Source: an uncultured delta proteobacterium
GTDB taxonomy: Bacteria; Desulfobacterota; Binatia; Binatales; Binataceae
Length of the DNA stretch: 64,000 nucleotides
Assembly: GCA_963794325.1 (NCBI GenBank)
Contig: CAWCDG010000005.1
Coordinates: 320,001 to 384,000, forward strand
Direction: 5' to 3'
The notes beneath the pieces were generated by a model. The model was not told the origin of the DNA, did no database searches, and saw nothing but the letters and a program-made list of their open reading frames with translations. The stretch's first letter is position 1. Each line of letters begins with the position of its first letter. This document shows positions 10,441 through 55,464 of the stretch, piece after piece. The position numbers and the translations under genes are program-made.

Positions 10441-10443
10441 GCG

Positions 10444-12279: not shown

Positions 12280-12304
12280 CGCCGGTTCGTCGAAAGTATC
12301 AGTC

Positions 12305-14025: not shown

Positions 14026-14116
14026 CGCGGGGGCTTCCTATAAAACTTAAACCGTCGCTTTATGTTTTTCGTAACCGCAGTTTGCGCCGGTCGGTGATAT
14101 AATACAGCCGATAGCG

Positions 14117-14572: not shown

Positions 14573-14573
14573 T

Positions 14574-14607
14574 AGCCGGATGAACCGCGTCCGGGCTGGC
14601 TTTTTGT
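14574..14607 (+). terminator. Possible rho-independent terminator
   Basis: Imperfect stem agccgga..tccgggct followed by ggctttttgt, right after the stop codon. Confidence 0.4.
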
Positions 14608-14691
14608 ATGCATTGCGTCAGGTAGTCTTCCGCGACTATAAGATTTATGGGGATCTTGGATTCGAGGAACTGATTAACCGGCGGGGAAAAA

Positions 14692-15966: not shown

Positions 15967-15984
15967 CTGCCGCTCTAGAAATCC

Positions 15985-16023
15985 GGTCCCCCTTCCCGCT
16001 CGGGAAGGGGTTAGGGGTTAGGT
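15985..16023 (+). repeat. REP-like palindromic element
   Basis: ccccttcccgctcgggaaggggttaggggttaggt forms a hairpin; its reverse complement recurs at 22227-22307. Confidence 0.8.
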
Positions 16024-16091
16024 CGCCAGTCATCCGCAGTAACTCCAGATATCACGAACGCCTTTTCTGCGTCCCCGCTTCCTGCCATTTT

Positions 16092-16760: not shown

Positions 16761-16773
16761 CTGCGCGGCCGGC

Positions 16774-17286
16774 GTGAACGAACTCCGCACTGTTCGCCTG
16801 ATCGGCACGCCGGCCGGCCCGGGCGACTTCGCGGACATCCGCAGTCTGCATGGTGATCCGCGCGTGATGGCGACGCTGTCCGCTGATGGCAGAACTTTTA
16901 CGGAAGATCAGAGCCGCGCGTTTCTGGAACGCGCCTCCGATCACTGGAAGTCCCACGGCTTCGGACTGTGGATCCTTCGCGAGCAGGCCAGCGGCGAGTT
17001 CGTCGGTTACGGTGGAATCAAACACGCGATGGTCGAAGGCCAAGACGAGATCGAACTGGCGTATGCGATCAGATTCGAGCACTGGGGCAAAGGACTCGCG
17101 ACCGAGATTTCAATCGCAGCGCTGAAGCTGGGGTTCGATACGATGCACCTGGATCGAATCGTCGCCTTCACCCTCCCCCACAATAAAGCGTCGCGTGGCG
17201 TGATGGAGCATTGTGGATTCACCTACCTGCGCGACATCGTGCACGCCGGCCTCCCGCACGTCCTCTATATTCTGGAAGCTCGATGA
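16774..17286 (+). CDS. GNAT N-acetyltransferase (RimJ/RimL-like)
   Basis: HGFGLW, WGKGLATE and NKASRGVMEHCGF motifs. Confidence 0.88.
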   Translation: MNELRTVRLIGTPAGPGDFADIRSLHGDPRVMATLSADGRTFTEDQSRAFLERASDHWKSHGFGLWILREQASGEFVGYGGIKHAMVEGQDEIELAYAIRFEHWGKGLATEISIAALKLGFDTMHLDRIVAFTLPHNKASRGVMEHCGFTYLRDIVHAGLPHVLYILEAR

Positions 17287-17354
17287 AAACCTGCGTCGGC
17301 GGATTGTCCGGCTAGTGAAGGGCGTGTACACTGTGCATACAATCGAGGTAGCGG

Positions 17355-17627
17355 TTGGAATACGAATGGGATCCCAAAAAAGCCGACCGGAACCTACACA
17401 AGCACGGTGTTGAGTTCGTCGACGCTGTAGTCGTGCTCGACGATGACCGCGCGATTACGCTGCCCAACGATCATCCGAGCGAGGAGCGGTATTTGACCTT
17501 CGGCATGGATGCACAAGGACGGGTGCTGGCGCTCTCGTACGCAATTAAAGCAAGCACCATTCGCATTATCTCTGCGCGCGTAGCGACCCCGGGTGAGCGG
17601 GCGCAATACGAGGACAAACGAATATGA
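17355..17627 (+). CDS. brnT: BrnT family toxin (type II TA)
   Basis: EWDPKKADRNLHKHGVEF..EER..IRIISAR; ATGA overlap with the antitoxin. Confidence 0.9.
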   Translation: MEYEWDPKKADRNLHKHGVEFVDAVVVLDDDRAITLPNDHPSEERYLTFGMDAQGRVLALSYAIKASTIRIISARVATPGERAQYEDKRI

Positions 17628-17893
17628 AGCGGGAGTACGATCTCAGCAAGGGCAAGCGCGGAGCCGTAGTGCCTCTGCCGCCGGAAAAGATTCGGATCAC
17701 GATACGACTGGACCGCGACATCGTGGATCAATTTCGCGACCAGGTCCGTCGAGCCCACCGCGGCAACTATCAAACACTGATCAACGACGCGCTTCGAGAG
17801 CACTTGCAGCGTCCGAGCCTTGCCGAGGAAGTCGGCAAGGAAGTTCGTTCGGTATTACGCGAAGAGCTGCACCGGGCAAAAGCGACGGCCTAA
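17624..17893 (+). CDS. brnA: BrnA family antitoxin
   Basis: MKREYDLSKGKRG..KIRITIRLDRDIVDQF..YQTLINDALR (RHH). Confidence 0.9.
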   Translation: MKREYDLSKGKRGAVVPLPPEKIRITIRLDRDIVDQFRDQVRRAHRGNYQTLINDALREHLQRPSLAEEVGKEVRSVLREELHRAKATA

Positions 17894-40559: not shown

Positions 40560-41331
40560 TTAAGGCTTGCCTGGAAGGGTGGGCGGTAAAGAACCCGGCA
40601 ACGCGGCCGGCGGCGGTGGCGCTATCCCCGCTCCACCAGTATCGCCCACCAAACTACTCACGTCACCGGACGGAATCCCTGTCATTCCTAGCGGTCCGGG
40701 CGACAGCGGAGGCGAGTCGCCAGGAATGGTAGTTTCGTAGCCCGCGTCAATCATAGTTTCCGAAGAAGATGGAAGCGCGGCATTTTGCGCGCCGACGCTG
40801 CCCTCGTAGGTCTTGACGTCCGTGAAGCGAGTGATTTCGCCGAACCCGTACCTGTGAGCACCATCCGAGTAGGCAGTGTCAAACTTGGTGCCGCGTACCG
40901 AAAGTATCGCGTTGGGTGTGTGGATCTGGAAATTGGGCGGACTGCCGCTAGAGGTATGCTTGACGATCGAGCGCAGGACTCCTGCAAGCAGGCCAATCTT
41001 CGTTGAAGTCGCGGCGCCATCAGCGCCTAGCAGTTGCTCATCGATCGTAAGCACACTTGCTGAGCCTGCTTTGAGAACGCTGCCGCCGGCTAGAGTTATG
41101 GCAAGGTGGCCCGAGGTAATAGTTATCTGATCGCCGATATCTACAACCGTCCCTATCGCCACATCGATTCGATTACCAGCTCGTTGAAGACTTGCGGTTC
41201 CGCTAAGGGCGGTCACGGACCCGGCGATAGTTTGCGCTTGCGCCATCCCAGCTGAATGCTAGGAACGCAAGGCAGCCAGCGATGGCAAGGATATTCGAGT
41301 CACGCGAGATTGAGCGGCACCGCAGCTTCAT
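40560..41331 (-). CDS. FecR-domain periplasmic protein; signal peptide separated by frameshift near 41250
   Basis: GSVTALSG..GDQI..FQIHTPNAILSVRGTKF. Upstream ATG 41331 gives MKLRCRSISRDSNILAIAGCLAFLAFS one base out of frame. Confidence 0.75.
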
Positions 41332-41382
41332 AATTTTACTTAGCGTGGTCACTGAGATACGGACCTCCCAACCCGGGGGCAG

Positions 41383-44300
41383 CTAGCGATTCTCGCGCGC
41401 AGTTGGCTTGTCGCTCACAGTGTAAACTTGGCCGGCCCGAATGTAGAGCTTTCTGGCTTCCTCCAGCGTGAACGGGCGTGCGCCGCGGCGGCCGAAGACC
41501 GCCAGCTGGTTACCGCTCTCGTCGACGGCGCGATCGCGGTCGAGACCCTTCGGAATCGCAAGCGCGGGCCCTCGCGTCGCAAAGGTCGCGATCAGCTTGG
41601 GTGAAGGACGCGGAGAAAACCCCTGATAGGTTGGGGAGTCATTCGGAGAGATCAGCTCCAGCACGTGCAGGCCGTTCTTTCCGTCGGCCAGATATGCAAA
41701 AACACTTGCGTCGGTCATGCCTATCTTGGTGTCGTTCAGATCATTGATCTTGCCATCGGCATTGTAGGTCTGATCGATTCGCGGATGCTCGGGACGTTCC
41801 ACATCGACGATCACCAACCCCTGTGCTCCGGCTGATAAGTATGCGTAAGTGCGAGCCACGTAGATGTTGCGCGCATCCGGCAGCGCAATCGCGGCGGCGT
41901 CCACGGGGCGCGGACTGGTTGGCTCGGTAACGTCGATGACCTTCAGTCCCTGCGAGTCGACAACGAACGCGTAACGAAATTGCACCGAGATTGCCCGCGG
42001 CTGGACGACGTGCGGCGCGTTGACTTCGCTTACCACCTTGAGCTGTGCGGGGTTAGAGATATCCACAACAACGATTCCCCGATCGCAGAGCACGTACGCA
42101 TAGTTACCAGCGATCGTACCGCCGAGCGCGCCGTTCAGGATTCCGCCAGGATTGAACCCAGGGCCACGCTTGAAGAAGTTATCGTCCGGATTGCCATTCC
42201 CCAGGGTTATTACATCAACTGCTATAAGTCCTTCGTACTTGTCCGTGATGAAAGCGTACTCAGCAGAGAGCGGGGGCTTTTGCTCCAGGTTCTCCGCGCG
42301 ATGCGATCGCTGGGGATCTATAAGCATGGTCGTCGGCAGCATGACGGAGGTCGCGTACTTGGTCGACACGTAGGTTCGCTGCCCTAGCGGCGAAACGGGC
42401 GCGGAGGTAAATCGCTCGGAGAATCCCTTGTTGTCCAGATTCGCTATATCGTAAACGACGAAACCACCTTTGCCCTGCGCGGTGAAGAGATACTCCCCTC
42501 GATTCTGGATAGTCTTACATTCGCCGTGGAATTCAGGCGCGGCGCCTTTCCACCCGATCTTAAGGACTGCGCCATGCTCAAAGGAATCGTGCAGGACACG
42601 TCCGCCGGTTACGAAGGATTTGAATTCGTCGGGATAAGCCAATTCGTGCAGATGACTCCCAATAACAGCTTGAGGCTCGTCGCGTTCTGTAACGATCACC
42701 GCTTCCATTCCTTCAGTTCCTTCGGCAACCCAGCAGTACCTTCCGATGAAATTGACGAAATTGGTGCCTTGCATCAGCAACTGCGCCATCTTTGCGTTGT
42801 TGTCGTTGTCCGCCGAGATGTGACAATCGGTGCATTGCTTGGTCTCTTCCGCGCGGACCGTGTGCGGAACCGTCGTACTGAATGCCTGCGCGGCAAAGCC
42901 TTCGGCAGAAACTGGAACCTGCTGCGTGTAAATCACTTCGCGCTCGGGATTGTATGAAGAAACCTCGACGGCGCATGACGACCGCGCCGGCGAAATCCGG
43001 TTTCCGGTAGTCACGCCGTCCTTGGCGATCATGAAAACGTCGTCGCGCAGCGTCTGAAAGTTGTAGCTGGTCCAGTTGCGCGTCATGTCGCCGTCGTAGT
43101 GAAGAATCGGGCGACGCATGTTCGCCTTCATCGGCAGATGGCATCCGAAGCAACTCGGAACCCATGACGAATGACAGGTCTGACAGGCCATGCTATCGAG
43201 CGGATGCGCCAGGTCCGCATCGGAAACGTCGATTTTACCCCAGGTCTTACCGTCCTTCTGGATTGTGTGTGCATAGGCGGCCTCTTCCCAAGCACTCTTC
43301 CATGCCTTAGAGGCGGGATTATCGATCGTAGCGAGTTGAGGTATAGGCCATTGCAGGTCCTTGTCCATTGTGGATTGTTGCTTGACTTCGATTACGCCGC
43401 CAGCCTCGCGCCGCACTCGAAAGCGCTGTCCGAAGGGCGTCTTCTTCGCGCCGGAGTCCCTGGAGAAATTAATTCGCTCACCCGCTGCGCCATTACCGCT
43501 GGCTTCAAAGGTCGTGTACTTCGAGTAAGTACCGTGACAGTCCTCGCATCGAACCTGGATGGGCCCACGCACCTCATCATATAGCTTGCCATTACCATGT
43601 GCGTCGCCAACGAAATGGCAGTCTGCGCATTGCATTCCGTATTCATTGTGGATGTCCTGCAGCTTGACCGCCCGCCGCCACTTGTACTTGTTGTCTGCGA
43701 TCACGTGATCGTGCTTGTCGAGCAGATTACCGTGGGTATCGTGCTTCCAGACGTATCTGAATAGCCAGCCATGACCATGGAAATCGGCGAGCTGCACCCG
43801 GCTGAGTTTGGGATTCAGCTCAGAACTCGCCTGCAGGAACTTCCGATCCGACCATAGACCTTTGACGTTGGCGCCCTCGGGATTCGCCATCAGGTCAACC
43901 GCTTCTTCGTCCGCTCCGGGACGCTTGGCCTTCTTTGGGTAGAAGAACTCACCGTCACTTTCATTGTCCCACCAGATGGTGCCGAAGTAACTGTTAGTGA
44001 CGGTAGTCCCCGGATGGACATGGCATACGACGCACTGGGACGAAGGAATTGAATTAGTCAGTTGATGCTTGATGGGATAGCCTGACACATCTTTAGGTAT
44101 CGACTTGTCCGCCGACGCACTGTGGCCGGTATTTCCGAACTTTGCGAAGGTTCCCGAATGCTCCTTGTCGCTATCGTTCGCATAAACGACGTGGCAAGAG
44201 GTGCATCCGCTGGACCTATAGTCGCCCGGATGATCGTTGGTGCCGAGAAACCACAGCGTTGGATCCATGAGACGGGTCTTGTGCAGGCTGAGAAACACAG

Positions 44301-45138
44301 GGTCCGTTCGCACCTTGGTGCCCAGGCCTCGGACACTCAGGCGGTTTTCGCCACGCTCGAAGACACGAAGGACGTTGCCGGGCTGTGAGATCTCAAAGCG
44401 GGCGAGCGGATCCAGATAAGGCACGACTCCATGTTTGAGGGTGTCCTCCGCAGTGGGAGGGGGAAGTGTTTGCACGCGAGTAGGATTGCCGTTCTCCGAG
44501 TAGGACTCGCCGAATCGCCCGATTTTCTCAGGATAAACTCCGTTGTTGTATAGCGCCGCTTCCCACAGCATGGGACCGGTCGCCATCATGCTCTTGCGGA
44601 CGTTCTCGACTTCGTCGATGTGGCATCCCTTACTGCCGCAACTCATACGCGCCGCGCGCAAATCGCCCGGATTCACAAATCGCACAAACTGCGGCGACTC
44701 GTTGTTTAACATCGAATAGGAGCGCACCGGATTCTGGCCGCTCTTTGGCCAATCTTCGGGATAAAGCGGCTGAACGTGAGCAGTTTCTTTTTTTGACGCC
44801 TTAGGATCTCCGCCGTGACAATCGACACATCCTATGGGCAGTTTGTCGGGATGCATCTCCTCGATTCCTGCGTGACAACCGGCCGCTTTGCAGCCGACGC
44901 TTTTCGCATCCGCCTCGGCCTGCGTCTGATCGGAAATGTCCGGCGGAATTATTACTTTGGCGTCTGCAAGGCGGGCTGGTACTGAATGCTCCGGAAGCAT
45001 CGCGCCAGGATTTGCAGGATCGTAAGCGCGATTGCATCCGAGATACACCATAGCTGTGCCGAGAATCGCGCATACCACGAGAGCTACGCGCAGCATGGTT
45101 CGTATCAACTGCGTAGGGTGGTCTCGGCTCGGTATCAC
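41383..45138 (-). CDS. Large multiheme c-type cytochrome with C-terminal LVIVD repeats, probable lipoprotein
   Basis: 8 CxxCH (CVDCH, CTSCH, CVVCH, CADCH, CEDCH, CQTCH, CFGCH, CTDCH) and 2 Cx4CH; IVVVDISNP, LKVIDVTEP, LVIVDVERP repeats; hydrophobic leader ending YLGC. Confidence 0.88.
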   Translation of the reverse strand: MIPSRDHPTQLIRTMLRVALVVCAILGTAMVYLGCNRAYDPANPGAMLPEHSVPARLADAKVIIPPDISDQTQAEADAKSVGCKAAGCHAGIEEMHPDKLPIGCVDCHGGDPKASKKETAHVQPLYPEDWPKSGQNPVRSYSMLNNESPQFVRFVNPGDLRAARMSCGSKGCHIDEVENVRKSMMATGPMLWEAALYNNGVYPEKIGRFGESYSENGNPTRVQTLPPPTAEDTLKHGVVPYLDPLARFEISQPGNVLRVFERGENRLSVRGLGTKVRTDPVFLSLHKTRLMDPTLWFLGTNDHPGDYRSSGCTSCHVVYANDSDKEHSGTFAKFGNTGHSASADKSIPKDVSGYPIKHQLTNSIPSSQCVVCHVHPGTTVTNSYFGTIWWDNESDGEFFYPKKAKRPGADEEAVDLMANPEGANVKGLWSDRKFLQASSELNPKLSRVQLADFHGHGWLFRYVWKHDTHGNLLDKHDHVIADNKYKWRRAVKLQDIHNEYGMQCADCHFVGDAHGNGKLYDEVRGPIQVRCEDCHGTYSKYTTFEASGNGAAGERINFSRDSGAKKTPFGQRFRVRREAGGVIEVKQQSTMDKDLQWPIPQLATIDNPASKAWKSAWEEAAYAHTIQKDGKTWGKIDVSDADLAHPLDSMACQTCHSSWVPSCFGCHLPMKANMRRPILHYDGDMTRNWTSYNFQTLRDDVFMIAKDGVTTGNRISPARSSCAVEVSSYNPEREVIYTQQVPVSAEGFAAQAFSTTVPHTVRAEETKQCTDCHISADNDNNAKMAQLLMQGTNFVNFIGRYCWVAEGTEGMEAVIVTERDEPQAVIGSHLHELAYPDEFKSFVTGGRVLHDSFEHGAVLKIGWKGAAPEFHGECKTIQNRGEYLFTAQGKGGFVVYDIANLDNKGFSERFTSAPVSPLGQRTYVSTKYATSVMLPTTMLIDPQRSHRAENLEQKPPLSAEYAFITDKYEGLIAVDVITLGNGNPDDNFFKRGPGFNPGGILNGALGGTIAGNYAYVLCDRGIVVVDISNPAQLKVVSEVNAPHVVQPRAISVQFRYAFVVDSQGLKVIDVTEPTSPRPVDAAAIALPDARNIYVARTYAYLSAGAQGLVIVDVERPEHPRIDQTYNADGKINDLNDTKIGMTDASVFAYLADGKNGLHVLELISPNDSPTYQGFSPRPSPKLIATFATRGPALAIPKGLDRDRAVDESGNQLAVFGRRGARPFTLEEARKLYIRAGQVYTVSDKPTARENR

Positions 45139-45157
45139 TCTCGATCGCTCCGACTGC

Positions 45158-47152
45158 TCAATAGGTCAGCGTGAGATTCATGAAGCTCGAGAAGAGCGTC
45201 TTTGCCTGATAGATATCGCGAAACCCATTGCCAGGAGCCAGGACCGAGAACCCGCCGGTCACGATGACGTTATCAATCAGCAGCGGTCGGTAACGGAACG
45301 CGACACTGTAGTCAAAACCAACATTGTGACCCAGGTCATTTTGATGGAGTATCGATTCCAGAACGGCAACCTTGTCGAACTGGATGAAGCTCACGTTAAA
45401 CATCGCCATAAGCTCAGGCGTGATCTTGGCGTCAACACCCGCGTTGTACTGCAAGACGCCGGGATTCACGAAGTTTGCCTGCCCCTGTAGTTTGTCACGC
45501 AAATCCGGAACCAGGCTCAAAGGATTGATCAAAGGAACTTGTGTGCCGGACAAGCCGATACCCACACGGTTGAAATAGGAGAATGGGACTCCGGAGAAAT
45601 TCGGATCGTCCTGTATCGTGTCGAATCCGCTCGCGGTATGCCCGTGTGGGTTGCCGCTCCCCGACGCATAGAAAAAGGAGCCCCTGAATCGGAGCCAATC
45701 GTGATCGTACGAGAGCTCGAGCGCTGCCATCTGCGCGTTGATATTGACCTTGTGGCCGGCGATGTCGTTGAAGCCGTCGTGGCCAACGGCTTCGTAGAAC
45801 GCATGCGAGACGTTGATTCGGCCTATGTGACCGTCACTGGTACAGCCGAAATAGGCCGTATCGACAGCGTGAGGTTTAACCGTTCCGATCAACGACGGAC
45901 GCACCAGGAACCCATTGTCGTTGTATAGGATGTGTCCGTTGTCGTTGTTATAGGCGAAGTCTAACTGCATATTGTAGCCGTCAAACAGAAAATCCTGACG
46001 GGTGAAGTTGAACAGTCCTATATTCTGATCGCGCCCGACGAATAGCGTGTTCAGTCCGCTGTTAGTGTCCTTTTCGAGAGGCCTGAAGTATGCGAGGTTC
46101 CATTGATCGCGGTTCGACTCGAAATTGCCGAACAGTCGAATGCCCGGATCGTTGTCAGAGAAGATGAAGCCACGGAAATCGCTGGTGAAACCCTGAACAC
46201 CCGCAGTCACTGACACGATGTCGTAGTAAGGGCTGAGGTCGGCGAGCTTGTAGGATACGAAGGCCTCCTGCACCGCGATGTGGCCGTTGGTGCGAGTGGT
46301 TCCATCGGCCGGATTGACATTGACGATCCCTCTTTCGTTTGTGTCCAGGTAGTTGAGATTGAACACCGGGGTAAACTTGAATTCCCAATCAAGCGGCTTG
46401 AAGCCCGCATCGCCATGGAACAGGTCGAACGAAAAAATCAGATTTTCCTGAACTGAAGTCTCGTCGCCGCTGCCAAAAAAGTTTGAACTATTCGGGCTCT
46501 GGGTGCTCACTCCGCTGGCCACCGGTAGCCGTTTGAACACCCAATCGACGTCATTGACTCCGGTCAGATCCAAAAACGTGTGGTCGCCAATAATCGGATA
46601 GTCGCCTTTCAGCACGTTCTGGTCGTAAGGATCCCACCAATGCCCCAACTGATACGGGTATTCGCCGGGGGTATTGAGCGTGTAGCGATCCCAGTCAGGA
46701 AATCCTATGCGCCATCGATCCGGTACCGGGATGAAATCCTGATCCGGAGTGGACTTAACCGCGGGCTCTAATACCGGTGGCGCAAAACCAAGCGGCGCCA
46801 TCGGATTAGTCGCGCCGCTCCATTCGGCGGCCTGCGCCTTCAGCTTCTCGTCGGTCGAGCTGGCGCTGCTTTTGTTTGACGGGCTCGAATTGGACGCTGC
46901 CTCCGTCGACTGGTCGTCGTTGGCCGCGACTATTCGTGGAAAAAATATTGTGACAGAGACGAGGAGACCGACAACGCTCAGGCGGAGCAGGCTTCGAGAA
47001 CCGATAGCGAATCGCGAGGTCGCGACCACCGCAGGAGCCCGACTGTTATTCAAAACAGGCGGAACATATTCCAGACGTTCGCATAGTGTCAACCATTGCG
47101 GAGGCCCGGCTTGACTCTGGGCAAGTCCTCTTGTGTATTGTAGCCGACTCAA
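45158..47152 (-). CDS. Probable outer-membrane beta-barrel protein
   Basis: Signal-like segment, amphipathic aromatic-rich strands and C-terminal FMNLTLTY. True start is probably downstream of 47152. Confidence 0.68.
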   Translation of the reverse strand: MSRLQYTRGLAQSQAGPPQWLTLCERLEYVPPVLNNSRAPAVVATSRFAIGSRSLLRLSVVGLLVSVTIFFPRIVAANDDQSTEAASNSSPSNKSSASSTDEKLKAQAAEWSGATNPMAPLGFAPPVLEPAVKSTPDQDFIPVPDRWRIGFPDWDRYTLNTPGEYPYQLGHWWDPYDQNVLKGDYPIIGDHTFLDLTGVNDVDWVFKRLPVASGVSTQSPNSSNFFGSGDETSVQENLIFSFDLFHGDAGFKPLDWEFKFTPVFNLNYLDTNERGIVNVNPADGTTRTNGHIAVQEAFVSYKLADLSPYYDIVSVTAGVQGFTSDFRGFIFSDNDPGIRLFGNFESNRDQWNLAYFRPLEKDTNSGLNTLFVGRDQNIGLFNFTRQDFLFDGYNMQLDFAYNNDNGHILYNDNGFLVRPSLIGTVKPHAVDTAYFGCTSDGHIGRINVSHAFYEAVGHDGFNDIAGHKVNINAQMAALELSYDHDWLRFRGSFFYASGSGNPHGHTASGFDTIQDDPNFSGVPFSYFNRVGIGLSGTQVPLINPLSLVPDLRDKLQGQANFVNPGVLQYNAGVDAKITPELMAMFNVSFIQFDKVAVLESILHQNDLGHNVGFDYSVAFRYRPLLIDNVIVTGGFSVLAPGNGFRDIYQAKTLFSSFMNLTLTY

Positions 47153-47218
47153 TCCGGGGATGATCTTTTCCCCAAGGTCGACTGCTCGCTATCGTTCGCT
47201 GGGGGCCTGGAGCAACGA

Positions 47219-48793
47219 ATGGGTGACAAGCATCGAGCTGCAAAGGAGGGCGCCAGCGTGCGTCGAGGAGCGATGGTCCTGCTCGCCTTCGTTCTTAGCG
47301 CGATGCATCCTGTTGCCGTTTGCGCGCTCGAAACGTTGAACACAGCGCCTCTCACTGTCAGCGACGTCGAGAACATAATCTCGGCGGCCGTGACCCGTGC
47401 GGTGCACGACAGAGTGGCTGTGATTGTTGCCGTAAGCGATCGCGAGGGTAACCCGCTCGCCGTTTACGACATGACCAACGCTCCAACCGGCAGCAAGGAC
47501 GCCGACGTCATCAACAGAATTGCGACGCTGCCCTGCTCTCCTCCCACCACAACGCCTTGCAATCCGACTCTGGCAGAGCGCACTGCGCTGGAAAAAGCCC
47601 GGACGGCGGCATTTCTGAGCAGCGACCAGGACGCGTTTTCGACCTTGACCGCTGCGACTCTGGTCGCAACTCACTTTCCGCTGCATATCTCCAACACTGC
47701 ACAAGCGCCATTGTTTGGCCTGCAGTTTTCTCAACTCCCATGCAGCGACGTGACGCCGGCTAACGGCGCGACTGGGGCGCTCGGCGGTATCCCGCTGTAC
47801 AAAAATAACGACATTGCCGGTGGAATCGGCGTCGACGGCGCAAGCAAGGGCGAAAACGAAAAGATCGCGTTGGCCGGCGATTCGAAATACAGCCCGAGCG
47901 CCGCAATCACCGCCAACCAGATCTACCTCGGCGGATTTCAGCTGCCATGGACCAATCAGCCGCCGCCGAAGCGGCTCGCATTGATTCCATTCGCCAGCCT
48001 CCCCGGAGCCCCCAGTCCGAACTACCCGGACATAATCGCCACTCCACCGACGAGCTTCCCGCCCGCGGTGTTTGCAGGAGTCGCAGGCGAGATTCGCTTT
48101 CCAATCGTGGACAGCTCGAGGCCGGTTCCGGTGAAGCTCACGGCGGCGGACGTGACGACGATAATCACCCAGTCTGTTGCCATAGCCAAACAGACCCGCG
48201 CGGCGATTCGCCAACCTATAGGGGTGCCCGCGCGAATGCAGGTCGGCGTGACCGATCTCGATGGCTCAATCCTTGGCGTCTTTAGAACTAACGACGCAAC
48301 CATGTTCAGCCTGGATATTGTTGTGCAGAAAGGTCGCTCAGTAACCGCATTCAGCGATCCCAATCAGCCTCTCGGTCATCAGTTGCGGCAATCGCTCGGA
48401 GTCGGCGCCAATCGCGAGATTGCCTTCACGACGCGAACGATTGGATTCCTGGCCCAGCCTTTCTATCCACCGGGCATTGACGGGACATCGCCGGGACCGC
48501 TACTCCACTTGCAGGGTAATCTGTTTAAGATGAAACCGACGGCGCCATGCATTCCCAATGGTGTTACCAACGGCGATGGCATCACCGCGTTTCCGGGTAG
48601 CACTCCGCTGTACAAGTCGGGGATCCTCGTCGGCGGGCTCGGTATCAGCGGCGACGGCGTCGACCAGGACGACTATGTGACAAACGCGGGCGCAGCAGGT
48701 TATCTCCCGGACCTATCCATTAGGGCAGACCAGATTGTGTTTCGAGGCACCCCGCTTCCATTTTTTAAATTTCCGCGACAGCCGGGTTTATAG
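47219..48793 (+). CDS. Secreted heme-binding protein with two GlcG/HbpS domains
   Basis: IVAVSDREG..ALEKARTAAF..GGIPLYK..GGIGVDG is repeated as VGVTDLDG..VQKGRS..GSTPLYK..GGLGISGDGVDQDD. Confidence 0.8.
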   Translation: MGDKHRAAKEGASVRRGAMVLLAFVLSAMHPVAVCALETLNTAPLTVSDVENIISAAVTRAVHDRVAVIVAVSDREGNPLAVYDMTNAPTGSKDADVINRIATLPCSPPTTTPCNPTLAERTALEKARTAAFLSSDQDAFSTLTAATLVATHFPLHISNTAQAPLFGLQFSQLPCSDVTPANGATGALGGIPLYKNNDIAGGIGVDGASKGENEKIALAGDSKYSPSAAITANQIYLGGFQLPWTNQPPPKRLALIPFASLPGAPSPNYPDIIATPPTSFPPAVFAGVAGEIRFPIVDSSRPVPVKLTAADVTTIITQSVAIAKQTRAAIRQPIGVPARMQVGVTDLDGSILGVFRTNDATMFSLDIVVQKGRSVTAFSDPNQPLGHQLRQSLGVGANREIAFTTRTIGFLAQPFYPPGIDGTSPGPLLHLQGNLFKMKPTAPCIPNGVTNGDGITAFPGSTPLYKSGILVGGLGISGDGVDQDDYVTNAGAAGYLPDLSIRADQIVFRGTPLPFFKFPRQPGL

Positions 48794-48838
48794 ATATCGG
48801 AGCCAAGGTGTAGAAGTGATGCCGAGAGGGAGGTCCAC

Positions 48839-49477
48839 ATGAACAAACCAACGAGTAACCTTGCCGCGTTCCTCATGATGGCGCTCGTGGCGGGCCTTTT
48901 CGCGTTGACGCCATCCGTAGTGCTGGCCGACGGACATGCGTACGTCGGTGAAAGCAAATGCGAGGACTGCCACGATTCGCAGCACGAAAAACTCGACGTC
49001 ATCGGCCCCGACGGCACTAAGTCCGACCCGGTCACTGTCTGGATGAAGGACCCTCACCATAAGGCATTCGATGCGTTGACTGGGGATTGGGGAAAACAGG
49101 CGGCCAAAAAAGCGAGCGTCGCCGATCCACAAGCTGACGGATCGATGTGCCTGACTTGTCATGCCACCGGCACGGGCGGCAACAATCCACCTGATCCTAG
49201 TGAAGGAGTGTCATGCGAGGCATGTCACGGTGCAGCGGCTGACTATGTGGCAAGAGACAAGCACGGCGAGATCGGCAACGATCCGGCGAAAATGGCGGCG
49301 GCGGTAGCGCTGGGTATGATCGATATGCGCAAGATTGACGTGCGCGAGAATAATTGCCGCGGCTGTCACGTGGTCGATACTTCCAAGCGGCCCTGCTATC
49401 GCGCAAGCGAGAAGCCCTTCGACGTTCACAATGACAAGAAGTTCCGGCATTGGAGAGATAACATCCCGCCAATCTGA
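48839..49477 (+). CDS. Tetraheme cytochrome c (c554-like)
   Basis: Signal peptide; YVGESKCEDCH, CLTCH, EGVSCEACHG and CRGCH; SD gagg. Confidence 0.88.
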   Translation: MNKPTSNLAAFLMMALVAGLFALTPSVVLADGHAYVGESKCEDCHDSQHEKLDVIGPDGTKSDPVTVWMKDPHHKAFDALTGDWGKQAAKKASVADPQADGSMCLTCHATGTGGNNPPDPSEGVSCEACHGAAADYVARDKHGEIGNDPAKMAAAVALGMIDMRKIDVRENNCRGCHVVDTSKRPCYRASEKPFDVHNDKKFRHWRDNIPPI

Positions 49478-49548
49478 TCTGATCCTGGGTTGAGCCGCTA
49501 ACTGCATCATGAGGGGCCGGCGGGCTAGCCGACTCCTTATGTCGTCGA

Positions 49549-51081
49549 TCAGAATCCTTTTCGAGTCATGCGGATACCTATCGATTTCATGAATGCGGTC
49601 GGCAACTCCGCATTTAGCATCGCGAACACGAAGTCGTTCTCGATTTCAATCGGCTCGGTCAGCCTTACGACGCTCGGATTGGCTTCTTGGCGCTCCGCGG
49701 AGGGTGTCTGAGGCGCTCGCTCTTCGGTCTTGCGGCTTCTGAACGATGTTGTCAGCCACGCGAATAAACCACGCCGCGGCGGTTGTTGAGCAGACTGGTC
49801 TGTCGTTTCCTGCACCTGCTGGCGCGATGATTCCGCCATTGGAGCAAGGACGACTTTGCCAGGTTTGATCTCGGTCACTTGACTCCACGGATACACAGTA
49901 ATCTGCGCTCTCTGCTGCAGGTCGCTGATTTTTACGGCGTTCTCAGGCGAGACCCGCGAACTGAGTGCCGCGTCGCGGAAGGAGTAGGAGACGGTATTGC
50001 GCAGCGCAGGATCCGCGAGCATCTGTGTCACCTCGGCGCCGGAGTTTCCCCCTCCAACGACCAGGACCCGCTTGTCCTTGAACTCCTCGGGCTCGATCAG
50101 GCCGTAGAAAACGCGATCGGCCGTTTCGCCATCAACATTCAGCTTGCGTGGAGTGCCACGCACGCCGATTGCCAGGACTACATAGCGCGCTTTGAAGCTT
50201 TTGCCGGGACGCGTTGCGATTTCAAACAATTCGTCGGCCCGACTTATGGAAATGACCTCCTCGCGCTCATTGATCTGGAGCTGCATCGTACGCAGCATCT
50301 CTTCCCATTTTTCGACCAGCTCTTCCTTGGTGCGATCGCCCTCCAAATAGAAGGAGCCGTATTCATCCAGCTCGATTGGACTTGCCTGAACAAACTTGCC
50401 GCGCGGAAAGGTGCGGATCGTGCTTGCCGCAGTATCTTTCTCCAGCGCCAGGTAGTTCAGCCCATTTGACTTGGCCGACCATGCCGCGCCGATTCCCGTC
50501 GGACCGCATCCAACTATCGCGACGTCGTAAACCTCGGGCTCGACCGCTCGCTTCTCATGTCGAATCGCATTGGCAATAGCCACAACCACCTGGCGGCCCG
50601 AACGCATCACAAGATTGATCGAGGACGTTCGTCCGCTAGCTTCGCCGGCGACATAGACGCGTGGGACGTTGCTCTCATAAGTGTCGTCGAGCACGGGAAT
50701 CTCCGGCGTTCGCTGTGGACCGGAGTCCGAAACCAGCCGGCGACGTGATTCCGGCGGCAGATAGCGGAGGTAGCCAACTCCGATCAAGGTCATAGTCACC
50801 AGTGCGAGGATCGCGAGCCACCACGGACGCAACGTGACCCTTCGAAGCGCGATGCTCGGAGATCCATTGTGCAAGCCGTGCAACGAAATCGTGTAGGCCG
50901 CAAGCCGCAACTCCGGCGGTTGATGGGGCCGGGTCGTAGGCGCCTTGGACGGGAAATCCTTGATCAGTTTGCCGCCGCGATAGTAGGTGTGGAACGCGTG
51001 GCAATCAGCACAGGCATTAAGCGTCTTCTCCCATGGATAACTCCAGTACCTCGAGCTGACCAGCTTCAGCTCGACTCGAGC
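49549..51081 (-). CDS. FAD/NAD(P)-dependent oxidoreductase (TrxB/YpdA-like) preceded by a heme motif and TM helix; probable C-terminal part of a fusion
   Basis: Frame is open 49549..51081 with CADCH (50998-51012), TM WWLAILALVTMTLIGVGYL, VYVAGE, IVGCGPTG, LAIGVRGTPR and VVGGGNSG. No proper start before TTG 50910. Confidence 0.8.
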   Translation of the reverse strand, partial: ARVELKLVSSRYWSYPWEKTLNACADCHAFHTYYRGGKLIKDFPSKAPTTRPHQPPELRLAAYTISLHGLHNGSPSIALRRVTLRPWWLAILALVTMTLIGVGYLRYLPPESRRRLVSDSGPQRTPEIPVLDDTYESNVPRVYVAGEASGRTSSINLVMRSGRQVVVAIANAIRHEKRAVEPEVYDVAIVGCGPTGIGAAWSAKSNGLNYLALEKDTAASTIRTFPRGKFVQASPIELDEYGSFYLEGDRTKEELVEKWEEMLRTMQLQINEREEVISISRADELFEIATRPGKSFKARYVVLAIGVRGTPRKLNVDGETADRVFYGLIEPEEFKDKRVLVVGGGNSGAEVTQMLADPALRNTVSYSFRDAALSSRVSPENAVKISDLQQRAQITVYPWSQVTEIKPGKVVLAPMAESSRQQVQETTDQSAQQPPRRGLFAWLTTSFRSRKTEERAPQTPSAERQEANPSVVRLTEPIEIENDFVFAMLNAELPTAFMKSIGIRMTRKGF

Positions 51082-52096
51082 TCAGGATGCCAAGGGGGTC
51101 TGTCCATGACGCTACTTGCCCCGAGGGTGTTCCTGCCTCGTGCGCGTGACAACTGAAGCATTTCCCGATCTCTCTGGTGCTCGAATCCCGCGGCTTCTCA
51201 CTCTCCTCGATATGCAGATGACACTCGGCACACTCCGCCTTTAGATGACCCGCGGAATGAGGTGTGAAAGTCGCGTTGATAGGACGGAACACTGCTGACT
51301 CAACAAACGGGATTGTCGGAGGCTCGGGCGTAGCGCTGCCGGCGGCGCTCGCGAGCTTCAAGTCTTCGTCCTGCCAACTCGAATGGCAGGTGCTTGCGGT
51401 GCATCCGGTGGTTACTATCGCAAATTCTTCGGGCTTTTCGCGTGACGGAGCGCTCACCAGATGACACGACCGGCAAGCGAGATGCTGTTCCGTGTGATCG
51501 AGCCCGCCGGCCAGCTCCGCAGCGGCCTTCTCGGCAGCTTGCTTGCGCGACGCTGATCGCATCCTTTGCGCGTCGGTTCTCGCTTCCCGCAAGTGTTTGA
51601 GAGTGTCTTCGAGATGCTGCTTATGGTTGAAGTCCTTGGCAAAGTTTTGGATCGACTTCCATTGAACATGCAGGCTGTGACCGTGTGCGCCGACCCCAGC
51701 TATCGAGTCATGCGCATGACACGCGCTGCAACTAGTTCCCGAAGTGGCGACAAAATCGACCTTGCGGCCCTTGTGATCCGTATGGCAAGAAAGACATGCC
51801 AGTTGATCGTTGAAACCAGCCAGATGCTTTCCGGGGTCCAGCCCAACGTCCTTGTCGTCGAGATTGACGTTCAAGTGGTCGGAGTTATGAATAATGTTAC
51901 CGTGACAATCGACACATCCGGTGCTGGCTAACGCGACGCCGCTCCACGGCTGGTGGCATACGGCGCAGTTTCCACCGAAGGGCTCGTGACCTTCAAGGAC
52001 AGGGCCCGGCGAATAACTTCGATGGAATGAGAGCAGGATGGCCAGCACCGCCAGTGTGACTATGCCGGCGACTGTCAGTTGGCTACGGCGCTTCAT
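51017..52096 (-). CDS. Multiheme cytochrome c (c3-like); probable N-terminal part of a fusion
   Basis: N-terminal TM helix then SPGP; 7 CxxCH plus CTASTCH. ATG 52096 overlaps the upstream stop (ATGA). Confidence 0.85.
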   Translation of the reverse strand: MKRRSQLTVAGIVTLAVLAILLSFHRSYSPGPVLEGHEPFGGNCAVCHQPWSGVALASTGCVDCHGNIIHNSDHLNVNLDDKDVGLDPGKHLAGFNDQLACLSCHTDHKGRKVDFVATSGTSCSACHAHDSIAGVGAHGHSLHVQWKSIQNFAKDFNHKQHLEDTLKHLREARTDAQRMRSASRKQAAEKAAAELAGGLDHTEQHLACRSCHLVSAPSREKPEEFAIVTTGCTASTCHSSWQDEDLKLASAAGSATPEPPTIPFVESAVFRPINATFTPHSAGHLKAECAECHLHIEESEKPRDSSTREIGKCFSCHAHEAGTPSGQVASWTDPLGILSSSRAEAGQLEVLELSMGEDA

Positions 52097-53028
52097 ATTC
52101 CGCCGAAGTAAAGAACCCCTACCACGTGAAATATCAGAAGTGCGAATGTCAGCACCGATAAGACTATGTGAAGATCCAGCCACCCAGTGCTGAGATGAAT
52201 ATTGAAAGAGTTATGATCGAGATTTACCTTGCGAGCCGCGAGGGCTAGAAGCTCGCGATAGGTCTTCTCATCGCCGGATTCTGCAATCCTTGCGGCCGCC
52301 GCCGCGCAGACTTGCTGACCGGGATCGATACCCTTTATCGTCGCCATCAAGAGAGTCCATCTCGACGCGGATCTATCGCTGAGAAGTATAGGCTTGATGT
52401 GGTCGATGTATGCCTTGGTTAGCTGCTCGCTATGCCCGAGAATTTTCTCCTCTGCCTCGCGATAGACCGCGCTGACCTTGGAATCGACATCCTCGAGCCG
52501 CACCTGGTGCTCGGCGAGCCGCGTCATCGCGTGCGGAAGTTTGTCCTGCAGTATCGCGCCGAAGATTCCGCTGATGAATAGCAACAGCACGAGTGTTGCG
52601 AGCGCAGCCTCCAAAGGACTCATCGCGGTCGTGGTGATGTGCCACGACAAGGGCAGCAACGCGAGCATCCCGAGCGTGAGATGAAACGCGCGCCATGTTT
52701 CGAGCCGATCTAGCTGGACCAGCCGATGTTGAATTGAGGCTGGAAAGATCTTCCCAGTGAATTGCAGCACGCGGATCGAGAACCAGATGTTGCGCTTGCG
52801 GACGCTGTACCATGCGATCGCGATAAAGCTTGCCAGCGCGATAGAGCCCGACCAGTATTCTCCAATCTCACGCCCGAAGGTTGAAGTCGCCGCGTTCAGG
52901 CCTGCCACCGCGATCAGACAAATGGTCAGCCAGAGCCAGATGCGGATCGGGATCGCGCGACCTCGGCGATCGCGAATATTCAAGGTTGGTCGGTTTGCGG
53001 CGGCGGCTCGAGCCTCTCGAGTAGCCAT
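52093..53028 (-). CDS. Membrane protein with paired TM histidines (cytochrome b / ferric-reductase-like)
   Basis: WRAFHLTLG..SWH and WLDLHIVLS..LIFHVV helices. Confidence 0.65.
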   Translation of the reverse strand: MATREARAAAANRPTLNIRDRRGRAIPIRIWLWLTICLIAVAGLNAATSTFGREIGEYWSGSIALASFIAIAWYSVRKRNIWFSIRVLQFTGKIFPASIQHRLVQLDRLETWRAFHLTLGMLALLPLSWHITTTAMSPLEAALATLVLLLFISGIFGAILQDKLPHAMTRLAEHQVRLEDVDSKVSAVYREAEEKILGHSEQLTKAYIDHIKPILLSDRSASRWTLLMATIKGIDPGQQVCAAAAARIAESGDEKTYRELLALAARKVNLDHNSFNIHLSTGWLDLHIVLSVLTFALLIFHVVGVLYFGGI

Positions 53029-53031
53029 CGG

Positions 53032-54706
53032 CTAGTCGTTCGAGCCCATGGCTTTTCTGACGCGATCGGGCCCGGCGATTACCACGCCGGTCGCGGTCGG
53101 GAAGAGATCGGAAGGCTTGATTCTCATCGCGGAGCCCGTCGGGCACGCATGAACACATCCCATGAACGGAAGCCCGTCGCACAGATCGCACTTTATGGGA
53201 TAGGCAGCCGGGATGTGGGCCGCGCTCTTTGACAAAGACTCGGTGCTCGATTCGGACTGCTCTTTGGATGCCTGATTGCGGCCAAGAATCCGTTGCCAGA
53301 GGCTGCGCTCGATCCGCTCGTGATCGCCGCGCTCGTGACTCGCAAAGATCCTGCTCCATAGGCCTTGTTCGACCGCGTGTGAAGGAACCGGATAAGGCCG
53401 GAAGAATTCTTTGCCGAGAGTCTCGGCTTTTCGATCCTGCGCCGCATCGAACTTACCGGTCTCGATCATCGCGATGTTGTCGTAGGGGCAGGCGATCGCG
53501 CAATTGCCGCATCCGATGCACATGTCGTATTGAAAGTAGATCTCGCCTTCCGGCCTTCGCTTGACCGCGCCGGTCGGGCAACTGTTCATGCATTTGGGAT
53601 CGTCGCAATGGCGGCACGCGGCCGGTATCAGGTATTTGCCCAGCTGGATCCCGGTCCTAATCAGGCGGCTGGTGCCATGAAGCGACTCGCACGCGGTTAC
53701 GCAATTATCGCACTTGACGCATAGGTCCAGATCCATCACCAGCAGCGCATCGGCCTGAATGACGCCAAACTGTCCGCTGTCTTTCAGAATCTCCGATAGC
53801 TCCGGCGTCAACTGTTCCTCAGCCGCGAGGCGGCGTTCTATGGTCGAACGCACTTGCGCTTCGGCCGAAGGAAATTGCTTGATGAGAGCCGCGACGTCCT
53901 CGCCGAGAATCTTGATCACCTCGCACTTACCCGCCGTTAAGACGCTCGCATTGCGAACGCCGCCACCGCCGATCAGCGACATCTCGCCGAAATACTCGCC
54001 GGCCCGCCGATATGCGAGCACCCGTTGAGTGCCATCTTTGGCTTGGCGGACAACTTGGACGTAGCCGTCGCGGACGATGTACAGACTGTCGCCGACCTCA
54101 CCCTGCTTGACCAGCACGATTCCGCGTTGGTCGTAGCGTTTGATCTCGCAATCCGCGAGCAGGCGATCGATGAACTCGTCCTTAACGCCCTTGAAGAGCT
54201 CGAGTTCATTGACCATCACGCGAATTGCGCGTTCGCGAAATCGGGCGGAGAGCAAGGCGCGTGCCTCGTCATTCGTTTCGACAAATTTGAGGCAATGCCG
54301 CGGGAATGTAGAAGATCTCGGCACCGTCCTGCGCAGCGACTATATCCAGCGTGCGTGGAAGTCCGCCCAACGCGCCCATTTCGCCGTAGAACTCGCCGGC
54401 GACACGCGCGGCAACCTTGGTCCTGACCGCGCCATCGATTTCGAAGAGGTCCACGCCGCCCTTCAGAATGAAGCAGAGATCGAGCTCATATTCGCCCTTA
54501 CTGCAGATGAGCTCGCCCCGGCGAAAATTCGCGAGGCGCATCGCAGCCTCGGAATCAAAGCCTTTCAGGAATGCGTCGCGCTGTTCGTCAGAAAAATGTT
54601 TGAAGAGATCGAATCCGGAAAGCTCGGACCACAATTCGTTCCCGGGCCTTCTAATCGGTACTCCAGCAAAACTCACAGGGCCACCGGCTACCGTGCCGCT
54701 GCTCAT
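53032..54706 (-). CDS. Tandem cyclic-nucleotide-binding domains plus 4x[4Fe-4S] ferredoxin; frameshift near 54300
   Basis: GEFYGEMGALGGLPRT and GEYFGEMSLIGGGGVRNASV; CVKCDNCVTAC, CRHCDDPKCMNSCP, CIGCGNCAIACP and CDLC..CVHACP. Joins as AEIFYIP/RHCLKF. Confidence 0.85.
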
Positions 54707-54741
54707 CTGTCAATAGCGGCCGACTGAACCGCATTTCGCTT

Positions 54742-55464
54742 TTAGAATCTTTCCTTGAAGGGACGGACTTCGAGCTCCATCGTCCATGCGCTCGGATCCT
54801 GATGCGCGAGATGCCAGTAGGTCTCTGCGATCGCCTCGGGCTTGAGAAAGTCGCCGTCTTTCAGGCTCGGCTTTAGTCCCCGCGCGCCAGGGATGTCGAT
54901 GCTGCCGTCCACGTTGATCCACACCACGTGGATGCCTTTCGGACCAAGGTCGCGAGCGAGTGATTGCGCCAGCCCGCGCATCGCGAACTTCGCGGGTCCA
55001 AACGAGACCGACTTCGCCCCAGCCTTCACGCCGGCGGTCGCCCCGGTGAAGAGCATCGTGCCATGCCCGCGCGCGATCATGCCGGGCGCGACTTCCTTGG
55101 CTGCGACGAACGCCCCGAGCGCATTCACCCGCCAGTCCGCTTCGTACTGCTCGGGCGTGATCTCTGTGATACTTCCGAATGCGCCGGTGCCCGCGTTATA
55201 GAGGAGCACCTCGGGCTCGCCGAGTTCTTTCCGAATGACGCGAAACGCATCGGCTATCTGCGCGGGATCGCTGACATCGCAACTGACGTCCAACACCGTC
55301 GCGCCGCTCTTCCGGACCTCGCCAGCGAGTGCTTTCAAATACTCCGCTTTGCGCGCGAGCATGGCGACCGCGTAGTTCGTAGCGAAGCGACGGGCGAGTG
55401 CGGCGCCAAGTCCCGGACCGACTCCGATAACGACCGCAACAGGTTGGTTAGACAGGGTACCCAT
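54742..55464 (-). CDS. SDR family oxidoreductase
   Basis: GVGPGLG, LYNAG, FTGATA and AKFAMRGLAQSLAR motifs. Confidence 0.9.
   Translation of the reverse strand: MGTLSNQPVAVVIGVGPGLGAALARRFATNYAVAMLARKAEYLKALAGEVRKSGATVLDVSCDVSDPAQIADAFRVIRKELGEPEVLLYNAGTGAFGSITEITPEQYEADWRVNALGAFVAAKEVAPGMIARGHGTMLFTGATAGVKAGAKSVSFGPAKFAMRGLAQSLARDLGPKGIHVVWINVDGSIDIPGARGLKPSLKDGDFLKPEAIAETYWHLAHQDPSAWTMELEVRPFKERF

Follow-up and report, generated by a model that had tools for sequence, protein, structure and literature searches.

We analyzed a 64,000-nucleotide window (the whole stretch of DNA studied here, positions 320,001 to 384,000 of contig CAWCDG010000005.1) from the genome of an uncultured member of the Binataceae, and focused on eight genes at positions 40560-54706 that very probably constitute one conserved system. 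These genes encode multihaem cytochromes, a beta-barrel, a candidate haem b membrane protein, a flavoprotein and an iron-sulfur (Fe-S) protein carrying cyclic nucleotide monophosphate (cNMP)-binding domains. Coordinates refer to the window unless another contig is named. The genes and, for the two that are split, their pieces are given below with strand, length in amino acids (aa) and family matches (E-values; TM, transmembrane).

40560-41246, minus strand: FecR-domain protein, 228 aa (Pfam FecR, 3.1e-9)
41383-45138, minus strand: haem/LVIVD protein (ten-haem/propeller protein), 1251 aa (Pfam LVIVD, 1e-24, and Cytochrom_c3_2)
45158-47152, minus strand: barrel protein, 664 aa (no Pfam or NCBIfam match)
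47219-48793, plus strand: tandem HbpS/GlcG (DUF336) protein, 524 aa (Pfam HbpS-like, 1.3e-25, three stretches)
48839-49477, plus strand: tetrahaem cytochrome, c554-like, 212 aa (Pfam Cytochrome_C554, 2e-10)
49549-52183, minus strand: haem-flavoprotein gene, split into a multihaem piece and a TM/flavoprotein piece
51017-52183, minus strand: multihaem piece, 388 aa (Pfam Cytochrom_c3_2, 9.9e-11)
49549-50910, minus strand: TM/flavoprotein piece, 453 aa (Pfam Pyr_redox_3, 4.9e-34)
52093-53028, minus strand: membrane protein with paired histidines, 311 aa (only a sub-threshold DUF4405 match in Pfam)
53032-54706, minus strand: cNMP/Fe-S gene, split into a cNMP piece and a cNMP/Fe-S piece
54269-54706, minus strand: cNMP piece, 145 aa
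53032-54324, minus strand: cNMP/Fe-S piece, 430 aa (many Fer4 families)

A preliminary description of this DNA, made from the sequence letters, had named the eight genes with their domains, and all were recovered in the list of open reading frames (ORFs) and by Pfam. Its total of 20 CxxCH and 3 Cx4CH haem motifs was returned exactly by our motif count: the 1251-aa protein carries 8 CxxCH and 2 Cx4CH, the 212-aa protein 4 CxxCH and the 388-aa multihaem piece 7 CxxCH and 1 Cx4CH, and one further CxxCH, needed to reach 20, is encoded out of frame ahead of the 453-aa ORF. The cluster also holds four [4Fe-4S] cysteine motifs by the same kind of count, and the two cNMP domains of the cNMP/Fe-S gene matched Pfam cNMP_binding with E-values of 3.8e-18 and 1.1e-9. 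No NCBIfam model reached its curated cut-off with the cluster proteins, and the Pfam and NCBIfam matches of the cluster included no molybdopterin, hydrogenase, NrfA or Hao family, in agreement with the earlier statement that no such catalytic subunit is encoded here.

Two of the genes, those for the cNMP/Fe-S protein and for the multihaem-TM-flavoreductase (the haem-flavoprotein), had been described as whole and proved to be each broken in the window by one inserted base. When aligned with three same-genus relatives, the window showed one such base near 51033, splitting the haem-flavoprotein gene, and the other near 54301, splitting the cNMP/Fe-S gene. In the relatives the haem-flavoprotein is encoded by a single ORF of 881 aa (G022) or 855 aa (G009), and the cNMP/Fe-S protein by single ORFs of 556/557/558 aa in G022, G009 and G004. 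The signal peptide of the FecR protein (MKLRCRS...LAFLAFSW; 41240-41390) is likewise in a frame other than that of the rest of the gene, the switch falling at a GGG run near 41250; the true start likely lies upstream near 41330 in that other frame, and the G022 orthologue measures 275 aa and has a signal peptide. A third single-base indel is the probable cause of this frame switch.

Three frame breaks within 14 kb could be taken as the mark of a decaying relic that is being lost in this organism. This explanation appears hardly tenable, since every break involves only one base and the frames beyond each of them remain open and conserved. We compared the insertion sites with contigs assembled from the public soil-metagenome runs X1, X2 and X3. 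Base 54301 is missing from an X1 contig at 99.5% identity, which over 1166 bases differs from the window by 5 letters and 1 gap. Base 51033 is absent from X2 and X3 contigs at ~96-97% identity, this site being judged on more diverged contigs as X1 gave no cover over the bin 51017-51133. Because these contigs, which may stem from sister strains, lack both inserted bases, we read the breaks as consensus errors rather than decay, which is likely but not proven; the genome itself, in 10 contigs yet only 85% complete, is taken to be an indel-prone assembly.

The limits first given for the cluster, 40560-54706, closely match the block of DNA that the window has in common with same-genus relatives. 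Similarity to G022 extends over 40595-54733 at 80.7% and ends there, similarity to G009 spans 41382-54743, and G004 carries these genes in another arrangement that includes a gap of ~6.5 kb. G+C content is 55-58% inside the island (42000-54000) versus 60-62% on both flanks, which fits acquisition as a block; there is no tRNA gene in the window, and no convincing flanking repeats were found at the island borders. Only 3/24 other same-genus and 4/16 other same-class genomes sampled were found to encode the ten-haem protein, either over its full length or in two adjoining pieces that span it, and the cluster is therefore accessory. Among these 40 relatives, the 7 that have the barrel/haem-propeller pair are exactly those with orthologues of the cNMP/Fe-S protein (E<=7e-28); the next best match (3.5e-19) covers residues 30-187 only, that is, the cNMP-binding part. 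The pair and the cNMP/Fe-S gene are adjacent or ~6-23 kb apart in the five relatives that have both on one contig. Two genomes among the negatives of this comparison, G019 and G024, are flagged unpublished.

The system extends far beyond the Binataceae. A profile of the barrel run against species-representative genomes matched at least 599 stretches, of which at least 587 were confirmed. The best 80 loci of this search, on which the locus counts below are based (iterated profiles), come from Binatia, several Acidobacteriota classes, Planctomycetota, Methylomirabilota/Rokubacteria and a few others. All 80 are from metagenome-assembled genomes, and 36 of them have full 10-kb flanks. Partners were found as follows.

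Ten-haem protein: 67/80 loci, 36/36 with full flanks
HbpS/GlcG protein: 49/80 loci, 23/36 with full flanks
TM-anchored multihaem protein: 45/80 loci (an upper bound, as haem profiles cross-match), 28/36 with full flanks
cNMP/Fe-S protein: 38/80 loci, 27/36 with full flanks
Membrane protein: 36/80 loci, 26/36 with full flanks
c554-like cytochrome: 31/80 loci, 21/36 with full flanks
Flavoprotein: 6/80 loci, 5/36 with full flanks
FecR protein: 5/80 loci, 4/36 with full flanks

Where found, the ten-haem gene always lies directly downstream of the barrel gene, and its 13 misses are mostly at or near contig ends. The cNMP/Fe-S protein, the membrane protein and the multihaem protein, hereafter the inner module, keep this gene order in the full-flank loci of several phyla, where they are present in 27, 26 and 28 of 36, respectively. 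At the genome level we applied thresholds of E<=1e-20 for the barrel and E<=1e-10 for the membrane-protein family. An even sample of 201 Binatia genomes contained the barrel in 37 and the membrane-protein family in 59, and all 37 barrel-bearing genomes were among the latter (37/37); in 23 of these 37 the two genes share a contig, 4-33 kb apart. Among 151 Acidobacteriota genomes, 17 had the barrel and 35 the membrane-protein family, again with complete overlap (17/17). A Planctomycetota genome with no inner module within 10 kb of its locus has the membrane-protein family on another contig. Two of the genomes positive for the barrel and the membrane protein, G204 and G272, are flagged unpublished.

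Our initial expectation had been one of separate, juxtaposed modules, and it was overturned by this co-occurrence. Two or three unrelated modules brought together by chance would accommodate the layout of the cluster in three units on differing strands, as well as the genomes in which the inner module stands alone. Such an origin is nevertheless extremely improbable, for the inner module is present in every barrel-bearing genome of the Binatia and Acidobacteriota samples, lies within 10 kb in 27/36 full-flank loci and, within the genus, travels with the rest of the island as a single block. We conclude from the common DNA block, the co-occurrence in 7/40 relatives, the two complete overlaps and the gene fusions described below that the eight genes are, with high probability, one conserved unit, as had been suggested at the outset; the accompanying guess that similar uncharacterised clusters may exist in other genomes is answered by many genomes across phyla.

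Many of the membrane-protein profile matches contain one in-frame TGA (G046, G081, G086, G098, G112, G138, G144, G160, G168, G204, G271, G272, G306 and G340); the simplest reading is that the match probably runs over the stop codon of the upstream cNMP/Fe-S gene.

Because it also occurs without the barrel, the inner module is the more general part of the system and has the barrel/ten-haem pair among its outputs. Three Binataceae genomes without the barrel hold the three-gene inner module alone. At one same-genus locus without the barrel/ten-haem pair (L116, G188:C1:809500-829499, 7488-17774), the cNMP/Fe-S and membrane proteins are fused into a chain of 817 aa, and next to this stand-alone module are encoded a true Alginate_exp porin, a pentahaem c554-like cytochrome (545 aa) and a protein of no family (471 aa); the same pair of a pentahaem cytochrome and a ~470-aa protein is present in G156. 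A richer variant of the cluster was seen at L087 (448-9549) and at 13 similar loci of Pyrinomonadaceae type. Here the cNMP/Fe-S and membrane proteins form a fusion, accompanied by an FHA-TM-heptahaem protein, a small c7-type cytochrome with four haems (CxxCH), two nine-haem cytochromes resembling the MtrC domain, a 256-aa protein of no family and a 699-aa HbpS/GlcG protein.

The membrane protein of the inner module has five hydrophobic helices. Two histidine pairs, H116/H130 and H287/H301, and two tryptophans are invariant in 34/34 sequences across phyla; each pair is spaced i, i+14, and an invariant tryptophan stands four residues ahead of the first histidine. Such spacing is as expected for two stacked b haems, and we regard the protein as a putative transmembrane wire built on two b haems. 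In a look-up by protein language model, its closest neighbor was a cluster bearing the name 'ferric reductase like transmembrane component' (score 0.92), which serves as a lead only. By positive-inside reasoning its N-terminus and a 120-residue loop would be cytoplasmic, in agreement with the fused forms and with the orientation estimated for the haem-flavoprotein.

The cNMP/Fe-S protein consists of two cNMP-binding domains followed by a ferredoxin domain with four [4Fe-4S] clusters. Its solved relatives are the cNMP domains of PKA-R and CRP and ferredoxins of the HycB/NrfC type, and the names of its relatives in public data are automatic domain names. The FGE...R.A phosphate-binding cassette is kept in the ferredoxin-side cNMP domain of the window protein and, by a strict pattern, in 21/38 homologues. 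The protein has no signal peptide and, in Pfam, no helix-turn-helix (HTH) family; a CRP/FNR transcription factor was considered and rejected, since the four-cluster ferredoxin takes the place of the C-terminal HTH.

The haem-flavoprotein is laid out as an N-terminal TM anchor, a nine-haem periplasmic domain, a second TM helix and a cytoplasmic FAD/NAD(P)H oxidoreductase domain, with an N-in/C-in topology that is a hydropathy estimate rather than the output of a dedicated predictor. The best solved relatives of its flavoprotein domain are YpdA/Bdr (7a7b, 2.5e-20) and ferredoxin-NADP reductases of the thioredoxin reductase (TrxR) type. Equivalence to the bacillithiol-disulfide reductase YpdA/Bdr was rejected (TIGR04018, 139.8 bits against a cut-off of 339.9), and its matches assign the domain to the wider Pyr_redox_3 / TrxR-like fold.

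Natural fusions fix the order of the subunits. In 14 of the 36 loci having the membrane protein, this domain forms the C-terminal part of the cNMP/Fe-S protein. In G027 one protein of 823 aa runs from a Pyr_redox_3 flavoprotein through two cNMP domains to the ferredoxin, and G039 and L058 carry three FHA domains, a multihaem domain, Fer4 and a Pyr_redox_3 flavoprotein in a single chain. The cNMP/Fe-S protein of Terriglobia is extended by a third cNMP domain and, at its N-terminus, by a NuoG-like 2Fe-2S/4Fe-4S region. Pyrinomonadaceae have an FHA domain on the multihaem partner in place of the flavoprotein, and three further cytochromes in the cluster.

On the periplasmic side, the 664-aa protein had been guessed to be a beta-barrel, and its AlphaFold2 model (mean predicted local distance difference test, pLDDT, 80.4) supports this with ~20 strands following a disordered, low-complexity N-terminal region of 100 residues. 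The best solved matches of the model in Foldseek were all AlgE (E 1e-16, target-normalized template-modeling score, TMt, 0.62-0.72), followed by general porins; a search of the sequences of solved structures returned nothing for the barrel profile or the ten-haem protein. The latter carries its haem motifs at residues ~80-775 and an LVIVD beta-propeller at the C-terminus. A comparison of 42 sequences showed no variation in the ten motifs or in a long C-terminal tail. In the window it has a signal peptide with the lipobox LYLGC (Cys35), and same-genus orthologues also have a lipobox. The structural neighbors of the propeller are generic propellers only (E ~1e-6 to 1e-8, query-normalized score, TMq, ~0.2). 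A complex prediction between residues 100-589 of the barrel and the C-terminal half of the ten-haem protein gave interface scores (ipSAE) of 0.02 and 0.00, which count neither way. Relatives of the ten-haem/propeller protein in public data form at least 7957 clusters at 90% identity (E<=1e-20), and the source names among 120 listed relatives are 'hypothetical protein' except for 'LVIVD repeat' and 'LPXTG-motif cell wall-anchored protein'.

The tetrahaem cytochrome has a signal-like N-terminus and is periplasmic; it was rejected as a Cyt554 equivalog, with 43.7 bits against the NCBIfam Cyt554 cut-off of 400. Membership of the HbpS/GlcG family is clear (PF03928, 90.3 bits versus a gathering threshold of 25), and this protein, with its hydrophobic N-terminus, is secreted.

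A CHASE2 adenylate/guanylate cyclase lies beside the cluster in 5/80 loci (L040, L042, L033, which is that of G022, L070 and L081), which fits control by cNMP; a FecR protein also stands beside the cyclase in G022, L040, L042, L070 and L081. In L040, from another Binatia genus, the cluster is followed by the cyclase, a 281-aa protein and FecR; in L042 all three are found beside the island, and in G022 at least FecR and the cyclase. Only FecR of this trio is left by the island in the window's genome. A FecR / 281-aa protein / CHASE2 cyclase trio is present there on another contig, at C2:4802-8703 (L113). Scans of the intergenic regions for Fur-box and CRP-site consensus sequences gave no signal, the best Fur-box match being 11-12/19 versus a background mean of 10.3 and maximum of 14.

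The reading that we favor, which we advance tentatively and hold to be somewhat short of probable, is an electron route under cNMP control that starts at NAD(P)H and leads to the outer membrane by way of FAD, Fe-S clusters, b haems and c haems. The cytoplasmic TrxR-like flavoprotein domain would accept electrons from NAD(P)H, and FAD would pass them to the four [4Fe-4S] clusters on the HycB/NrfC-like wire of the cNMP-binding ferredoxin. The cNMP/Fe-S protein would dock on the five-helix membrane protein, whose two histidine pairs would hold two stacked b haems, and these would carry electrons over the membrane to the nine-haem periplasmic domain, part of the same polypeptide as the flavoprotein. 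From there the soluble tetrahaem cytochrome could shuttle electrons to the ten-haem/beta-propeller protein, which would act with the AlgE-like barrel and reduce an acceptor either outside the cell or let in via the barrel. The tandem cNMP domains may gate the Fe-S wire on cyclic AMP (cAMP) or cyclic GMP (cGMP), and in the sister loci the nucleotide would be made by the CHASE2 cyclase paired with the FecR protein. Such a route would be quinone-free, would move negative charge outward and would spend both reductant and membrane potential, making the system a regulated electron outlet rather than a coupling site; this cost would explain why it is placed under second-messenger and FHA control. The preliminary description had likewise drawn one chain. 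Hydropathy agrees with its continuous topology from cytoplasm through membrane to periplasm; electron flow and its direction, the NAD(P)H donor, the substrate or acceptor, the subunit contacts, the cNMP gating and the role of HbpS/GlcG are what we infer.

Several observations weigh against this route. The barrel is AlgE-like, that is, like a narrow alginate channel, and not MtrB-like, and there is no counterpart in the island of the MtrA of MtrCAB (the DmsE/MtrA model TIGR03508 scores 18-20 bits versus 192 with the tetrahaem and nine-haem proteins). The model of the ten-haem protein has a mean pLDDT of 61, with a confident propeller and a poor haem half. A strict lipobox pattern is passed by 6/45 of its full-length relatives (it missed at least two same-genus loci showing LYLGC, L033 and L034), and the N-termini printed for most other lineages are ordinary signal peptides; because most relatives thus have an N-terminus without a lipobox, the ten-haem protein may, as far as these sequences tell, be periplasmic. 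The membrane protein matches no Pfam family above cut-off and no solved structure by sequence, and hhalign gave a probability of 3% between its family and the genome's own Ferric_reduct protein. The membrane-protein family is found without the barrel in 22/59 Binatia and 18/35 Acidobacteriota genomes, and the related genomes behind all of these counts are non-independent samples. Finally, NAD(P)H input is lineage-specific and not general, since the flavoprotein is found only in 6/80 loci and an FHA or NuoG-like module occurs elsewhere.

The main rival reading draws on some of the same observations: the ten-haem/propeller protein would be a soluble or membrane-tethered periplasmic oxidoreductase fed by the inner module, with its active site in the propeller and the barrel serving as a channel for a small soluble substrate, so that no electrons cross the outer membrane. 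The narrow, 18-stranded AlgE channel as best solved match of the barrel and the ordinary signal peptides of most relatives are in line with this reading, as are the many invariant residues in the propeller and C-terminal tail and the presence of the cofactor-bearing cd1 nitrite reductase, N2O reductase and AztD among the propeller's neighbors. Nevertheless, the propeller matches are generic, as seen from their E-values and TMq, no known catalytic family appears in the Pfam/NCBIfam scans, the window's own ten-haem protein has a lipobox, and 23 haems make a long chain for the supply of such an enzyme. We consider this reading unlikely.

The rarity of the flavoprotein bears on a second alternative, a quinol-linked branch. 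In Geobacter CbcL, a di-haem b membrane protein is joined with a multihaem c domain. By likeness to this layout, a CbcL/CymA-like quinol oxidase feeding the periplasmic cytochromes could be formed by the di-haem b protein together with the nine-haem domain and its TM anchor, with the cytoplasmic Fe-S and flavoprotein parts as a regulatory or side input, and most lineages indeed do without the flavoprotein. However, no NapC/NirT, NrfD or other quinone-interacting family was found in the Pfam/NCBIfam scans, and the fusions in which the Fe-S protein takes part, with the membrane protein (14 loci) or the flavoprotein (G027), point to an integral cytoplasmic site of electron entry or exit. A quinol-linked branch is accordingly judged quite improbable.

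Multihaem chains are reversible in principle, and c554-type cytochromes serve oxidative pathways in nitrifiers. Electrons might thus be taken up inward: a donor outside the cell or in the periplasm, for example Fe(II), Mn(II) or reduced humics, would supply a cytoplasmic acceptor via the Fe-S protein and the flavoprotein. For such donors, however, transfer to the NAD(P) couple in opposition to the membrane potential would be doubly uphill, and the island contains no oxidase or carbon-fixation partner, which leaves inward uptake with a slim probability.

With regard to known systems, the outward route proposed here is to be compared first with porin-cytochrome conduits. Shewanella MtrCAB and the Geobacter Pcc/Ext systems likewise have a barrel gene beside a large multihaem cytochrome gene and a periplasmic multihaem relay, and MtrC has a lipobox, as does the window's ten-haem protein. 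The island differs in that its barrel matches neither MtrB nor PioB (no Pfam/NCBIfam family), its cytochrome is fused to an LVIVD propeller and its cytoplasmic input, made of Fe-S and flavin parts with cNMP domains, is encoded in the cluster itself. Geobacter ExtM (NF040943) was tried as an identity and rejected, with 73.5 bits versus a cut-off of 800 and a best match of only ~50 residues (494-542). The barrel resembles AlgE/Alginate_exp in predicted fold, but has no PF13372 match, and there are no alginate synthesis genes in the island.

Multihaem cytochromes also occur with beta-propeller proteins in two putative electron-transfer clusters, Desulfovibrio ferrophilus DFE_0448-0465 and the uet cluster of 'Ca. 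Tenderia', the latter of which also encodes a beta-barrel (PMC9769857; bioRxiv 10.1101/2022.05.06.490989). As far as the accessible text of these reports goes, their propellers are separate NHL-repeat proteins, whereas in the island the LVIVD domain is fused to the cytochrome, and no cNMP/Fe-S protein, His-pair membrane protein, flavoprotein or HbpS/GlcG partner is described.

The layout of the inner membrane part is the same as in Tmc, Hmc, DsrMKJOP and di-haem succinate:quinone reductases. These have cytoplasmic flavin and/or Fe-S centers, two b haems in the membrane and c haems outside. No family-level match was found to DsrMKJOP, Hmc or Tmc (DsrO 69.3 vs 200, HmcB 43.3 vs 420, HmcA 20.9 vs 400 and TmcA 16.8 vs 114), no CCG/Hdr-type subunit is present in the island, and cNMP domains are not known in these complexes. 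Eukaryotic NOX/FRE enzymes follow the same logic, from NADPH through FAD and two b haems to an outside acceptor, and their ferric-reductase domain has histidine pairs ~13 residues apart on two helices, a pattern like that of the membrane protein. The latter does not match Ferric_reduct (PF01794) in Pfam, and in the island the flavin, Fe-S and haem b parts are separate subunits feeding c haems. By analogy, the system would combine the workings of a porin-cytochrome conduit with those of a transmembrane module of the Tmc/Hmc-like or NOX-like kind.

When four of the island families were searched against NCBIfam, the sequences of solved structures or a large protein collection, no named characterised system was obtained. 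In the literature, with subscription journals mostly outside coverage, we found no description of the cluster or of an LVIVD-multihaem fusion. The earlier statement that no characterised system of this make-up is known thus agrees with both the family models and the literature searches.

A broader proposal, doubtful and offered as a speculation, is that many aerobic soil bacteria among the Binatia, Acidobacteriota, Planctomycetota and Methylomirabilota carry an undescribed, second-messenger-gated electron outlet, a multi-subunit, envelope-spanning counterpart of NOX/FRE. In such an outlet, cAMP/cGMP or phospho-signalling would open the Fe-S wire and reductant would flow to the ten-haem/propeller protein at the outer membrane, for the purpose of reductive Fe or Mn mobilization, humic reduction or disposal of surplus reductant. 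The carriers are dominant but poorly cultured soil lineages, and if electrons are exported, this would be a major unrecognized route linking soil heterotrophs to iron, manganese and humic redox chemistry. We know of no earlier case of cyclic-nucleotide-binding domains on an Fe-S electron wire, and direct switching of a redox wire by a cyclic nucleotide would, if true, represent a new kind of regulation. It also provides a direct experimental handle, the switching of electron flow by cAMP/cGMP, and the subunit order given by the natural fusions can guide biochemical reconstitution.

It is to be noted, as a minor observation, that the two multihaem genes share an exact 20-nt direct repeat (44813-44832 / 51900-51919), located in both near the CVDCH motif of haem 2.

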